The translations under genes and the position numbers were made by a program. The notes beneath the pieces were generated by a model. It was not told the DNA's origin, did not search any database, and worked only from the letters and a program-made list of their open reading frames with translations. Below are positions 8,496-44,195 of a stretch of 64,000 nt of DNA, in pieces. This stretch comes from a virus. Taxonomy: Duplodnaviria; Heunggongvirae; Uroviricota; Caudoviricetes. How positions within the stretch are numbered: the stretch's first letter is position 1; each line of letters opens with the position of its first letter. The stretch lies in IMG/VR virus record IMGVR_UViG_3300011008_000003. One strand, given 5' to 3'.

Positions 8496-9686
8496 TTAAA
8501 ATGCCGCCTTGAAGTTATATACTGGCTTGATAATCTTTTCGATAGAGCAAGTAGGTTCAATATTCGTAATGATTTCCTGCATCGGCTTGTATGCCATAGG
8601 AGACTCATCAATCGTCGCAGAAGACACACAGGACGTGAAAATTCCCTTCATAGCATCTTTATATTCTGACATGGAAATGGAGTTCTTAGCGTCCGCTCTG
8701 GTCATTAAACGGCCTGCACCGTGAGGAGCGCTGTAGTTCCAGTCTTCATTTCCCTTACCGACACAAATCAAAGAGCCATCACGCATATTCATCGGAATAA
8801 TAACACGTTCACCAGCCTGTGCAGAAATAGAACCCTTACGAAGAATCATATTCTTAAGGTCGATATAGTTATGAATAGTTTCAAACTTTTCGACAACCTT
8901 GAAACCCATTTCCTTGACAATCACATCGAGCATTGCGGCACGGTTCATAACGGCAAACTGCTGAACAATTTCCATGTCATGCAGATAACCCTGCATGTGT
9001 TCGCCAGTAAGATATGAAAGATTCTTAGGAACAGAGAAATGGTCATAATCCTTCATAAGTTCCTTAATTTCCGCATCGGTCTTTCCCTGATTCTTATACT
9101 TGGAAATTTCAGCGCCGCGAATGGCTGTCAGGTCGGCACAATCCTTAATTGCAAGATTCTGCCAGTATTCACAAGTAGCGACACCCAAATGACGAGAACC
9201 GGAATGAATAACTACATAGAATGCACCATCGTCGTCTTTATCGACCTCAATGAAATGATTGCCTCCGCCGAGGCTTCCAATCGACAGAAGTTCTTCACGA
9301 CGAACGTCAGCGATAAGTTCTTCAAACTTTTCGTCAAATTCATTACCGAAACGGTGACGGTTAGTTCGATGTTCCTTACCGGACGGAATCTTGGTCTTGA
9401 TTACCTTGTCGAGCTTACCGAATTCGATAAACTTATCTTTAAGCTTCGCAACCAACATTCCGCAACCAATATCAACACCGACAAGATTAGGCACAACCTT
9501 ATCCGTAATAGTCATGGTAGTTCCGACCGTGCAATCCTTTCCGGCATGTACGTCAGGCATAATACGAACCTTAACGTCTTTCGCCCAGCATTGACACATC
9601 ATATTCAAAATCTGTGAATATGCCGCATTATCAATATTGTCCGTATAGACACGGGCTGTATTATATTTTCCTTGAATGTCAAGCAT
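8496..9686 (-). CDS. rtcB: RtcB RNA ligase
   Basis: MPDVHAG, VGVDIGCG, GSLGGGNHFIE, HSGSR, HNY, SAPHGAGR, DESPMAYK. Confidence 0.95.
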   Translation of the reverse strand: MLDIQGKYNTARVYTDNIDNAAYSQILNMMCQCWAKDVKVRIMPDVHAGKDCTVGTTMTITDKVVPNLVGVDIGCGMLVAKLKDKFIEFGKLDKVIKTKIPSGKEHRTNRHRFGNEFDEKFEELIADVRREELLSIGSLGGGNHFIEVDKDDDGAFYVVIHSGSRHLGVATCEYWQNLAIKDCADLTAIRGAEISKYKNQGKTDAEIKELMKDYDHFSVPKNLSYLTGEHMQGYLHDMEIVQQFAVMNRAAMLDVIVKEMGFKVVEKFETIHNYIDLKNMILRKGSISAQAGERVIIPMNMRDGSLICVGKGNEDWNYSAPHGAGRLMTRADAKNSISMSEYKDAMKGIFTSCVSSATIDESPMAYKPMQEIITNIEPTCSIEKIIKPVYNFKAAF

Positions 9687-11423: not shown

Positions 11424-12107
11424 TTAATTTGATAATTGTTGTATTCTAATAGTTTGTTTTAATCTATAAATTTCAGTTTCTCTGTCTTCTAATGAAAGTT
11501 TTTGCCAATCAGACCAACGAATTCTTTTTAATAATCTCCATCCTAAATTAATTAAATTTTCAGTACGTATTTTATCATGTAAAATACCAGTTTTTGTATA
11601 ATGCTGTTCACCATCTACTTCAATATATACTTTAATATCAGGCCAAGCATAATCTAAAAAATATCTATCTACATGATATTGTTTTTCCGCATTAGTAAAT
11701 ATTTCATTAAAATATTGTTCTGCATATGATTTCCGTTTTTCTCGTGCTGTTGTATATCTCGATATATTTTTATAATTTTCTTTTTGAACAATAGAAATTT
11801 GTTTACGTGTTTCAATCGTTTGATAATGTTTATATGCGGCTTCTGGTAATGTGCCATTTAAATAATGTTCATGTCTAGTTTCTGTATATTTAGCAACACG
11901 TAAATCATTATCTTTTGTTAATCCTTTATTCCATGCTTTATGTCCTTTTCTGGGTTTATATTTTCCTTTTTCACGATTTTCATGTAATATTTTTAAACAT
12001 CTATCATCTTTATTAGGATTTAATTTACACAAACGTTCATGATTTCGTAATGAATTTGCATTTTTGCATATTTTATTGCAATATTTACATACATAATCTT
12101 GTTTCAT
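11424..12107 (-). mobile_element. Free-standing homing-type endonuclease (Zn finger plus DUF559/Vsr-like nuclease) inside tRNA operon 1
   Basis: CKYC..HERLC, WNKGLTK, YFLDYAW...IEVDGEQH; AT-rich, inserted between tRNAs. Confidence 0.7.
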
Positions 12108-12225: not shown

Positions 12226-12307
12226 TAGTGGACTTGGCCGGATTCGAACCGTGCGACTCCCGTATTAAAAGTACGGTACTCTAAAATGCCTGCTGAGTTA
12301 CAAGTCC
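12226..12307 (-). tRNA. tRNA-Lys(UUU)
   Basis: Loop CT-TTT-AA. Confidence 0.8.
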
Positions 12308-12312
12308 AAAAA

Positions 12313-12395
12313 TAGTACACTAGGCGGGCTTCGAACCCGCATTTGCAGCTCCAGTTACGGCTAACGGATTAGAAGTCCGACCCGACTACTAGTGT
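12313..12395 (-). tRNA. Atypical tRNA-Arg(UCU), reduced D arm and long variable arm
   Basis: Loop CT-TCT-AA, T arm and acceptor stem intact. Confidence 0.6.
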
Positions 12396-13769: not shown

Positions 13770-13832
13770 AATAGCGGGAAGTAAATTACCGATTTTAAGT
13801 CTGTTTTTTAATAGGAACTTCCATATGCTATT
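13770..13832 (-). ncRNA. GUUCCUAU scaffold RNA carrying a Leu(UAA)-like anticodon stem-loop
   Basis: AGCA-NN-stem-GTTCCTATT...GA-CTTAAAA-TC...TAC-stem-CGCT. Confidence 0.6.
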
Positions 13833-14727: not shown

Positions 14728-14814
14728 CTAGTCGCGACACCCCATATAATACATGGAATAACCGAACATCGAGCTCGGAACTAATGACCATGAATATGAA
14801 TAAGAGTGCAACAT
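14728..14814 (-). CDS. Leader peptide 2, MLHSYSYSWSLVPSSMFGYSMYYMGCRD
   Basis: AAGGA RBS; rich in Ser(TCN), Tyr, Met. Confidence 0.85.
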   Translation of the reverse strand: MLHSYSYSWSLVPSSMFGYSMYYMGCRD

Positions 14815-21025: not shown

Positions 21026-21101
21026 TATCCCAAGGCCGGAACTCGAATCCGAACTAACAGAATCACAATCTGCTGTGCTAGCCAATTACACCACCGCGGG
21101 G
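21026..21101 (-). tRNA. tRNA-His(GUG)
   Basis: Loop TT-GTG-AT. Confidence 0.8.
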
Positions 21102-21107
21102 ATGATT

Positions 21108-21183
21108 TAGAGCCCTATGCCGGGTTCGAACCGGCGCCACCTGCTTGGAAGGCAGAAATGCTAAGCCACTACACCAATAGGAC
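21108..21183 (-). tRNA. tRNA-Gly(UCC)
   Basis: Loop CT-TCC-AA. Confidence 0.85.
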
Positions 21184-21189
21184 ATATTT

Positions 21190-21266
21190 TAGAGCCCTAG
21201 ACGGAATTCGAATCCGTAAACCTTCTCCATGGCAAGGAGACATTCTACCAGTTGAACTACTAGGAC
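21190..21266 (-). tRNA. tRNA-Gly(GCC)
   Basis: Loop TT-GCC-AT. Confidence 0.85.
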
Positions 21267-21269
21267 ATT

Positions 21270-21345
21270 TCGAGCGATAAATGGGACTCGAACCCACAAC
21301 CTATTCCATGGCAAGGAATCGCTCTACCAGTTGAGCTACTACCGC
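21270..21345 (-). tRNA. tRNA-Gly(GCC)
   Basis: Loop TT-GCC-AT. Confidence 0.85.
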
Positions 21346-21533
21346 ATAACCTAATTTTTTATCTTCCCGGTGTCGGACACGAGAAATTAGTAAAACTCCC
21401 ACCGCATAGTTCATGCCAGCGACTGCTTTCTTGAGGACAAGAACCGTGCCCTGTCAGCTTTTTATACCTAATGGTTCTCTGACGAAACATAGCTAGAGCT
21501 CATACCGTAGCTAAATAAGTATGAGATAGATTT

Positions 21534-21609
21534 TAGTGCCACTACCTGGATTCGAACCAGGACCCGCTGATTAAGAGTCAGCTCGACTAGGCCATTATCA
21601 TATAGAGGC
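21534..21609 (-). tRNA. tRNA-Lys(CUU)
   Basis: Loop CT-CTT-AA. Confidence 0.8.
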
Positions 21610-21616
21610 AAAATTT

Positions 21617-21692
21617 TCGTACCCCAGGAAGGACTCGAACCTTCAACCCACTGATTAAGAGTCAGCTGCGCTACCAATTGCGCCACTGAGGC
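21617..21692 (-). tRNA. tRNA-Lys(CUU)
   Basis: Loop CT-CTT-AA. Confidence 0.9.
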
Positions 21693-21693
21693 A

Positions 21694-21772
21694 TAGTGCA
21701 CCCGACAGGCTTCGAACCTGTAACCGCCGGCTTCGTAGGCCGATGCTCTAAATCCAGTTGAGCTACGGGTGC
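21694..21772 (-). tRNA. tRNA-Arg(ACG)
   Basis: Loop CT-ACG-AA. Confidence 0.9.
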
Positions 21773-21780
21773 AAATTTGT

Positions 21781-21857
21781 TAGCGATCATGGTGGGATTC
21801 GAACCCACGAAAACTGGTTAGACAGACCAGCGCCCTAGACCACTAGGCGACACGACC
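21781..21857 (-). tRNA. tRNA-Asp(GUC)
   Basis: Loop CT-GTC-TA. Confidence 0.85.
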
Positions 21858-21862
21858 AAATT

Positions 21863-21918
21863 AATAGCGAGAAGTAATAATACAGATTTGCAGTCTAATA
21901 GGAACTTCATATGCTATT
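21863..21918 (-). ncRNA. GUUCCUAU scaffold RNA carrying a Cys(GCA)-like anticodon stem-loop
   Basis: Scaffold with TAGA-CTGCAAA-TCTG insert. Confidence 0.6.
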
Positions 21919-21992
21919 TAGCGGTCTCAACGGGTCACGATCCCGTACCTCCAGCGTGACAAGCTGGTGTCCATCCATTAAACGATGAGACC
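21919..21992 (-). tRNA. tRNA-Asp(GUC)
   Basis: Loop TT-GTC-AC. Confidence 0.8.
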
Positions 21993-21996
21993 AAAT

Positions 21997-22027
21997 AAAA
22001 AAGATTCCTGTGAGTTGCACAGGAATC
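21997..22027 (-). terminator. Attenuator terminator, tRNA operon 4
   Basis: GATTCCTGTG-CAACT-CACAGGAATC followed by T6. Confidence 0.9.
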
Positions 22028-22053
22028 AATCTAAAACTTTTTACAGTTAAAAA

Positions 22054-22155
22054 CTAGATGACCCTGTGCTTGTGTCGATCCTTATCATGCTTACCGAAAC
22101 CTCGTCCGTCGCGGCGAGTCTTGCAATCATGAATGTCAACTACAAACTGAGTCAT
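22054..22155 (-). CDS. Leader peptide 4, MTQFVVDIHDCKTRRDGRGFGKHDKDRHKHRVI
   Basis: AAAGG RBS; Asp, His, Lys(AAG), Arg(CGN), Gly codons match downstream tRNAs. Confidence 0.85.
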   Translation of the reverse strand: MTQFVVDIHDCKTRRDGRGFGKHDKDRHKHRVI

Positions 22156-22208
22156 TTTCTTAACCTTTATATTATATATAAAAAATTTTTTCCTGTTTTT
22201 GCAAAATA

Positions 22209-22327
22209 AACAGCGGGCAGTAACTGGCAACAAGAGTAGGACTCGAACCTACGACCTTTCACCTTGCGGTGAGTGCTCTAACCAACTGAGCTACCTCGTT
22301 AATTTTATAGGAACCGCGTATGCTGTT
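22209..22327 (-). ncRNA. GUUCCUAU scaffold enclosing a complete anticodon-less tRNA mimic (22225-22300)
   Basis: D arm, T arm, acceptor with encoded CCA; anticodon loop replaced by a GCAA tetraloop. Confidence 0.65.
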
Positions 22328-22396
22328 CTCATTTATTTTACGTTGTTAAATATAGTAAATTGTTTTAGCTTTGTAAACCCCTAAAAATAATTTTTT

Positions 22397-31185: not shown

Positions 31186-31262
31186 TATTACCAGGCTCGG
31201 AATCGAACCGAGAATCTTTTGTCCTTCCGAACAAACGCTCTTACCATTTGAGCTAACCCAGC
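31186..31262 (-). tRNA. Atypical tRNA, anticodon undetermined (8-nt loop or GGAA tetraloop)
   Basis: Normal D and T arms; TTTGT-TCGGAAGG-ACAAA. Confidence 0.55.
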
Positions 31263-31263
31263 A

Positions 31264-31504: not shown

Positions 31505-31552
31505 AAAAATAAAACTGACCTTACTCATCTCAACGCGTACTATTGACTTTCG

Positions 31553-31627
31553 GTTAGCGCATACGGGATTCGAACCCGTGACCAGCGGCCTTCACACCGC
31601 TTGTTCTACCGCCGAACAAAATGCGTT
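31553..31627 (-). tRNA. tRNA-Phe(GAA), divergent
   Basis: GTGAAG in anticodon loop, T arm GGTTCGAATCC. Confidence 0.6.
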
Positions 31628-31635
31628 ATCAGTTT

Positions 31636-32398: not shown

Positions 32399-32517
32399 TA
32401 GGCGGCGAGACTGGACTCGAACCAGCAACCCAAAGTACCCATTAAATAGGAATCATCGGTGCTAGAAAGCGGATAATAAAATATAAACTTTTGCTCTACC
32501 ATTGAGCTACCCGCCGC
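32399..32517 (-). ncRNA. tRNA body whose anticodon loop is replaced by a circularly permuted scaffold motif
   Basis: Canonical D and T arms; insert TTATCCGCT-TTCT-AGCACCGATGATTCCTATT. Confidence 0.6.
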
Positions 32518-43849: not shown

Positions 43850-44195
43850 TTCTCATCTTTTGGACAATGCGAGCGGACAGGTTAAGCCTAGTAGGTAATA
43901 CTAGACTTTCTTATTCACACTTTTGGCATAAAGCTTCGCGTGTCAGTCAGAAGGACTTATAGGTATGCTTACGGGTCGGTCATCCTGTACTCCGGCTATA
44001 TCATACCAGGCCATGGCGGCTAAGTGTACGGTTTGCTAGACCGTACTTCGATAATCGGTTCGTCACCCGATACGAAACCTTACATACCGAGTCAGTGATA
44101 TACCTCGATTCTGGGTATATGACGGCTCACCCTCTACCGATAGTTCCATTGGGTTGGTCTTCGTTCCGAGGAATAAGTCTTTACGATGTCGAATC
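43850..44195 (-). ncRNA. Structured leader or ncRNA candidate of about 340 nt
   Basis: GC-richer, ORF-free, multi-hairpin stretch between promoter and gene. Confidence 0.45.

Follow-up and report, generated by a model that had tools for sequence, protein, structure and literature searches.

A tRNA operon of a T4-like phage preceded by a putative ribosome-mediated leader-peptide attenuator

Layout of the unit and its genomic setting

The unit described here lies on the minus strand of a 64-kb stretch of viral DNA, which was analysed at its full length and is referred to as the window. In the direction of transcription it comprises a sigma-70-like promoter, a tRNA-like RNA, an A/U-rich box, a short leader ORF, an intrinsic terminator and nine tRNA genes (Table 1). 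Including this one, the 64 kb contain six paralogous units, one for each tRNA operon. The A/U-rich box occurs in exactly six copies in the window, all on the minus strand; each stands before a short leader ORF, behind which a terminator and then a tRNA operon follow. The region singled out in the initial annotation (21997-22185) extends from the conserved A/U-rich box to the U-tract.

Table 1. Features of the unit and of the putative attenuator; positions refer to the window.
Feature	Position	Strand	Description
Sigma-70-like promoter	22345..22377	-	-35 TTTACA, 17-nt spacer, -10 TATATT; score 10/12
tRNA-like RNA between promoter and leader	22225..22300	-	ARAGORN tRNA-???; Rfam tRNA, 49.4 bits
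Conserved A/U-rich box with terminal Shine-Dalgarno AAAGG	22164..22185	-	AAAGG 8 nt before ATG
Leader ORF, 33 codons + TAG stop	22054..22155	-	ATG at 22155; conserved in ~15 related contigs
Putative sensor window, codons 7-28	22072..22137	-	20/22 codons cognate to downstream tRNAs
Internal GC-rich hairpin within the ORF	22101..22118	-	MFE structures; nearly invariant in relatives
Segment 2, predicted antiterminator 5' strand	22059..22069	-	overlaps codons 29-33, just before the stop
Segment 3, predicted antiterminator 3' strand = terminator 5' arm	22017..22028	-	pairs with segment 2
Intrinsic terminator	21993..22027	-	perfect 10-bp stem (5 GC pairs), 5-nt loop, U-tract
tRNA operon, proposed to be regulated	21028..21992	-	tRNA-Asp x2, Arg(ACG), Lys(CUU) x2, Gly(GCC) x2, Gly(UCC), His(GUG); ARAGORN, Rfam

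The sigma-70-like promoter probably drives the unit. Promoters of this type were found upstream of all six units, and in the related contig L021 the promoter stands directly upstream of the A/U-rich box with no RNA in between. In the tRNA-like RNA the anticodon loop is replaced by four nucleotides, GCAA, on a 5-bp stem, and the CCA is encoded; this RNA is dispensable for the attenuator model set out below. A repeated motif, AGCATACG..GTTCCTAT, flanks this RNA and is also present at 21900-21920 and near 13800. Two further tRNA-like genes with abnormal anticodon loops were detected at 31188-31263 and 31552-31628. The A/U-rich box may act as a translational enhancer or as a second promoter; similar A-rich contexts of ribosome binding sites (RBS) are found at phage genes.

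The predicted leader peptide reads MTQFVVDIHDCKTRRDGRGFGKHDKDRHKHRVI. A GC-rich hairpin within the ORF is a candidate pause or protector element. The ORF is separated by a spacer of 26 nt from the terminator hairpin (22027..22003), whose U-tract (22002..21993) is followed at the very next base, 21992, by the first tRNA-Asp gene. As the terminator abuts the first tRNA and no space is left for a promoter, the tRNAs must come from read-through.

The window has a GC content of 38% and codes for UvsX, a gp15-type tail-sheath stabiliser and RtcB, by which it is assigned to a giant T4-like phage. Related sequences are metagenome-derived viral contigs of up to 424 kb (IMG/VR), which are taken to be of rumen origin. 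All 52 tRNA genes called by ARAGORN in the window are located on the minus strand. A search of cultured-phage DNA with 3 kb around the unit revealed matches only to tRNA genes and no cultured close relative. Neither the 241-aa gene after tRNA-His nor the 108-aa gene upstream showed a Pfam or PHROGs match.

Codon content of the leaders and their conservation

The initial annotation had counted five Asp, four His, four Lys, three Gly and five Arg codons in the leader ORF, and all these counts are correct. The tRNAs that it had matched to them are likewise present downstream on the same strand, as called by ARAGORN, with gtc as the anticodon of both Asp genes and the other anticodons as in Table 1. 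By standard wobble rules the nine tRNAs read 12 codons. Cognate codons make up 20 of 32 in the leader compared with a background of 22.6%, which was derived from 57 long ORFs of the minus strand (binomial p = 1.5e-6). Asp is encoded by GAC and GAT, His by CAT and CAC, Gly by one GGA and two GGT, and Arg by two CGC, two CGA and one AGG. Both CGC and CGA can be read by an Arg tRNA with inosine at position 34. The single AGG lies within the antiterminator strand and is therefore regarded as structural and not as part of the sensor. The Arg and Gly codons at 22118..22101 double as the internal hairpin, and part of the leader composition may be structural in this way.

More had been read into the choice among synonymous codons than the studied leader can carry by itself. 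The exclusive use of AAG for Lys (4/4) and the preference for CGN for Arg (4/5) were confirmed as counts; taken singly, neither is significant, as AAG accounts for 53% of the Lys codons of the phage (p ~0.08) and CGN for 69% of its Arg codons. A comparison with the sister unit that carries Lys-UUU (AAG 4/0 in the studied unit, AAA 3/1 in the Lys-UUU unit) gave p = 0.14. Specificity at the codon level (AAG vs AAA, CGN vs AGR) is thus only suggestive when the studied unit is considered alone. It gains some weight from the Ser codons of two sister units, which are AGY 4/0 in the unit with Ser-GCU and UCN 6/1 in the unit with Ser-AGA and Ser-UGA (Fisher p = 0.015).

Comparison of all six units gave a clear assignment of leaders to operons. 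The six leaders share no common sequence, and each mirrors its own operon. Among the 720 possible permutations of the 6x6 leader-operon matrix the true assignment is the best one, at the level of amino acids and of codons alike, with values of 0.38-0.66 on the diagonal and mostly <0.2 off the diagonal. The enrichment of cognate codons is significant in 6/6 leaders (binomial; combined p = 8e-24). Together the six units cover nearly all amino acids.

Leaders of the sister units also follow the gain and loss of tRNA genes in related contigs. In the Trp/Leu operon, contigs that lack tRNA-Cys (L014) have no Cys codon in the leader, and the window has both. Where the Tyr/Met/Ser operon contains extra Cys, Ile and Gln tRNAs (L074, L088), the leader has three codons of each, compared with one, zero and zero in the window. 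A tRNA-Val added to the Asn/Thr/Pro operon of L021 is accompanied by five Val codons in its leader, and in the Glu/Ala/Phe operon of the same contig, which is without Ile and Val tRNAs, most Ile codons of the leader are gone. A counter-example is L070, where the leader of a sister unit retains Ile and Val codons without Ile and Val tRNAs.

Pattern scans identified the studied leader in ~15 related contigs, with the start codon conserved in all of them. The leader is followed there by two Asp tRNAs, in some contigs by an Arg tRNA, and thereafter by those for Lys, Gly and His, the order of which varies. An alignment of the 10 distinct copies showed a mean column identity of 88%. Only 4 of 45 sites are variable in codons 13-27, compared with 19 of 28 in the spacer. 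By codon position, 12 variable sites are third positions and six each are first and second positions. Variable sensor codons before codon 28 change mostly to other cognate codons: position 12 is Lys or Asp (a change of three bases), His9 is replaced by Lys and Asp16 by Gly, and other changes are synonymous. His30 is replaced in relatives by Arg (CGC), which is still cognate. Non-cognate residues replace one another at codons 3, 8 and 11. Codons 28-29 vary freely, and a ribosome stalled at these codons would already mask segment 2. One metagenomic variant with a His9 to Tyr exchange is an exception. Synonymous positions of the core hardly vary, an indication of constraint at the level of the RNA or of the codons.

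A metagenome scan added no deeper covariation; apart from near-identical copies it detected one fragment at a contig edge (L181) and a single hit within a GC-rich gene (L174), which is attributed to chance. Searches with ARAGORN and Rfam found no Arg(ACG) tRNA in L073 and L086, though their leaders retain CGN codons, and a blastn search with the Arg(ACG) tRNA of the window revealed no convincing match in the relatives without a called Arg tRNA. Gaps of 108-236 nt are present at the corresponding position in relatives (L073:5603-5817, L086:1356-1464, L021:12341-12577), and the gap in L120 gave a weak tRNA hit in Rfam (33.6 bits).

Predicted RNA switch and competing explanations

The pairing between the end of the ORF and a downstream stretch, which had been proposed from the sequence, is real: GCACAGGGTCA (22069..22059) pairs with TGATTCCTGTGC (22028..22017), and the duplex has a predicted energy of -15.2 kcal/mol. 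Among random windows taken from the same strand, 0.13% reached complementarity of this extent to the terminator arm (p = 0.0013). The corresponding values for the other five units are 0.07%, 2.3%, 3.2%, 4.6% and 23%, and the combined p for the six units is 8e-7. The complete antiterminator hairpin (22069..22017), which consists of segment 2, a spacer hairpin and segment 3, was calculated at -18.8 kcal/mol, the terminator at -13.4 kcal/mol.

Both structures are conserved in the aligned relatives. All 11 antiterminator pairs form in 10/10 sequences, and the terminator is 94% paired. One antiterminator pair is compensatory (AU in seven, GC in two and GU in one copy). Its 3' partner is a base of the terminator loop, so this pair supports the antiterminator specifically; the support is thin, as 30 of 500 shuffles equalled its score. 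The covariation comes from this one pair because the relatives are shallow.

Folding of the naked RNA gave MFE structures with a formed terminator in 6/6 units. In the studied unit the terminator is present while segment 2 is engaged in pairing inside the ORF; the whole leader is far more structured than shuffled sequence (z = -5.65). To represent the co-transcriptional state, the transcript was folded as it would be before the 3' arm of the terminator exists, with a ribosome footprint of 28 nt masked. The antiterminator was the MFE structure with the ribosome at codons 1-25. It gave way once the ribosome occupied the final seven codons; at codons 27-32 most of its pairing was gone. With the ribosome at the stop codon, the terminator arm paired elsewhere and not with segment 2. 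At equilibrium and with the complete terminator, the terminator was preferred at nearly all stall positions of the studied unit; a clean switch with a masked footprint was obtained for the unit at 14814 and none for the studied unit. As equilibrium folding prefers the terminator, the switch must be kinetic, as it is in classical attenuators. The unit has an ORF with an RBS, enriched codons, a terminator and an antiterminator that a ribosome can mask, and it terminates by default in silico.

We consider it likely that the unit is a ribosome-mediated attenuator of the trp/his leader-peptide type, which would serve as a demand sensor for tRNA supply. The initial annotation had also read the region as an attenuator, and this finds support at the sequence level: all features are present, they are conserved in relatives, and they are repeated at 6/6 tRNA operons with operon-specific codons. 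A link to tRNases of the colicin D/E5 type, on which that annotation had touched, is speculative. Translation of the leader, a structural switch driven by stalling and the direction of the response are inferred from these features. Transcription would start at the sigma-70-like promoter, and a ribosome would load on the 33-codon leader. If the Asp, His, Lys(AAG), Arg(CGH) and Gly codons are decoded fast, the ribosome would reach the stop codon and cover segment 2, the terminator would form, and transcription would stop at the U-tract, just before tRNA-Asp. If charged tRNA for any of the sensor codons is scarce, decoding would be slow and the ribosome would stall in codons 7-25. Segment 2 would then be free to pair with the 5' arm of the terminator once this has been made, RNA polymerase would continue past the terminator site into all nine tRNA genes, and the leader would be trimmed off by RNase P. 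Without translation the leader would fold on itself and the terminator would form. In such a closed loop a shortage of the operon's tRNAs would raise their own synthesis.

The ORF could also be translated and sense decoding with a different output, namely processing or stability of the tRNA precursor through access of RNase E or RNase P, or loading of Rho. Codon match and conservation fit such an output equally well, the leader adjoins an RNase P site, and the preference of equilibrium folding for the terminator at most stall positions agrees with it. We nevertheless regard it as unlikely, since 6/6 units combine a canonical terminator and U-tract with a more stable, mutually exclusive antiterminator, which is the signature of termination control.

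Very unlikely, in our estimate, is a plain boundary between transcription units, at which the hairpin ends an upstream RNA made up of the tRNA-like RNA and a meaningless ORF. Constitutive leakage, or a phage promoter that has escaped recognition, would then supply the tRNAs, and the codon match would have no regulatory meaning. Terminators and promoter-terminator cassettes are indeed common in this T4-like genome, with 28 terminator-like sites in the window compared with 12.7 expected, and words similar to TATAAT and TATAAA within the A/U-rich box raise the possibility that it is a promoter specific to the phage. However, the U-tract abuts the tRNA so that no promoter fits between the two, and a mere boundary explains neither the six-fold operon-specific codon match nor the leader composition that tracks gain and loss of tRNAs. 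It also leaves unexplained the conserved complementarity between ORF end and terminator arm and the far stronger conservation of the ORF core than of the spacer.

Conservation of the peptide in ~15 contigs and the excess of third positions among the variable sites (12, compared with six each for first and second positions) would also suit a functional micro-protein with basic and acidic residues, for example an RNA- or tRNA-binding peptide, whose likeness to the tRNA set is coincidental. This is hardly plausible for six leaders that share no sequence and each mirror their own operon. Replacements like that of Lys by Asp or of His by Lys count as radical in a protein but leave a codon sensor unaffected, and the nearly frozen synonymous sites of the core likewise argue against selection on a peptide. 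A chance ORF was rejected, as it fails on the six-fold specific codon match and on the covariation between leader and operon.

Comparison with known systems and further features of the tRNA island

Multivalent attenuators are known from enterobacteria, where thrL senses Thr and Ile and the leader of ilvGMEDA senses Ile, Leu and Val; trpL, hisL, leuL and pheL are further leaders of this kind. The phage unit resembles these amino-acid attenuators in its short ORF rich in regulatory codons, its intrinsic terminator and the location of the antiterminator 5' strand at the ORF end. Default termination by self-pairing of the leader and several amino acids per leader are also common to both. In contrast to them, the target of the phage unit is a set of nine tRNA genes and not biosynthetic enzymes, so that it would work alike without being a member of the family. 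Because it would regulate tRNA genes, the sensed molecules would be the operon's own products. The phage leader would further differ in sensing five amino acids through interspersed codons and not through a run, and the phage unit differs in being phage-encoded and part of a set of six. The attenuator of E. coli pheST with its pheM leader is similar in that a component of the translation apparatus is controlled by the level of charged tRNA; however, it acts on a synthetase (Phe-tRNA synthetase), responds to one amino acid only and is encoded by the host.

T-box riboswitches share with the phage unit the control by terminator and antiterminator that reports tRNA status. They recognise uncharged tRNA by direct binding, for which they use a specifier codon and the T-box sequence, and translation plays no part, whereas the phage unit has an ORF and an RBS. 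A T-box was rejected, as an Rfam scan of the whole window at the gathering threshold revealed only tRNA and the cow-rumen-2 RNA motif. The latter is located inside the phage genome at 43948-44052 (-) and is a full-length match (103 bits, E = 8e-19).

Hairpin and U-tract elements repeated between genes of a T4-like genome are also reminiscent of T4-type PeSL (promoter-early stem-loop) cassettes, in which the -35 box lies within the stem and the -10 box after the hairpin. This assignment was rejected because the hairpin 22027..22003 contains no TTGACA and is followed directly by the tRNA, with no -10 box after it. Hairpins resembling PeSL elements, with TTGACA in the stem and TATATT thereafter, were found elsewhere on the minus strand (11054-11018, 15428-15394, 20239-20203 and 29889-29854).

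A similar arrangement was found in the Caulobacter phage phiCbK (JX100813, 47000-53000; L163), where GenBank-annotated rho-independent terminators lie directly before three tRNA groups. At L163:4342, a short ORF in which Gln, Phe, Val and Ile are abundant, and part of which is complementary to the terminator arm, stands before tRNAs for Phe, Val, Ile (two), Val and Gln (two). Two Pro, two Lys, three Leu and two Ser tRNAs follow gp083, which has 45 aa and a high content of Ser, Leu, Pro and Lys. In both phages the tRNAs thus stand behind a short ORF and a terminator, and their amino acids prevail in the ORF, whereas sequence homology is absent and phage family, host and GC content differ. Shared logic without homology suggests convergence or a very old design.

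To our knowledge, tRNA genes are thought to be controlled at their promoters (growth rate, stringent response) and by processing, and not by attenuation. A full-text search of the literature, with incomplete coverage, revealed no description of leader-peptide control of tRNA genes. We tentatively put forward, as a possibility somewhat short of probable, that large phages possess a modular closed-loop tRNA supply in which each operon is switched on by a multi-codon leader that samples the codons of its own tRNAs. Such leaders would detect host tRNAs that have become scarce or have been cut or degraded, as in host shut-off or by anticodon nucleases, and only those would be replaced. RtcB would be part of this counter-measure, and the design would be widespread, in T4-like phages of the rumen, phiCbK-like phages of Caulobacter and others, and would represent an unrecognised class of attenuator targets.

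If this holds, a leader that samples the decoding speed of its own tRNAs would place tRNA supply under direct feedback from its own product. The sorting of the tRNA islands of these phages into amino-acid-specific operons, each directly behind a terminator, would thereby be explained, and phages would have a mechanism to tune tRNA output to the loss of host tRNAs in infection or defence. The six leaders would constitute a natural panel of codon- and tRNA-specific sensors with possible use as reporters of tRNA status, and the same design in phiCbK, which is a laboratory phage, makes the idea directly testable.

Several further features were noted in and around the tRNA island. A homologue of the tRNA-splicing and repair ligase RtcB (8496-9686, minus strand; Pfam E = 2e-56) adjoins the island, as would suit a role in the repair of cleaved tRNAs. 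Between tRNA genes of the 12704 operon lies an ORF (11424-11800, minus strand) that resembles a small endonuclease. Two tRNA genes were overlooked by ARAGORN (12320-12395 and 12229-12307, both minus strand). One is Arg(UCU)-like; its D-arm is degenerate and its extra arm long. The other, a Lys(UUU) tRNA, is detected by Rfam. With these two genes the tRNA set would fully match the 12704 leader, in which AGA and AAA codons occur. Unusually long tRNA matches of 110-117 nt were found at 32402-32516 (-) and in relatives (L120:9978-10092, L070:8506-8622, L021:8852-8962), where they are kept just upstream of the Glu/Ala/Phe unit; such a length suggests that they contain an insertion or an intron or are permuted.
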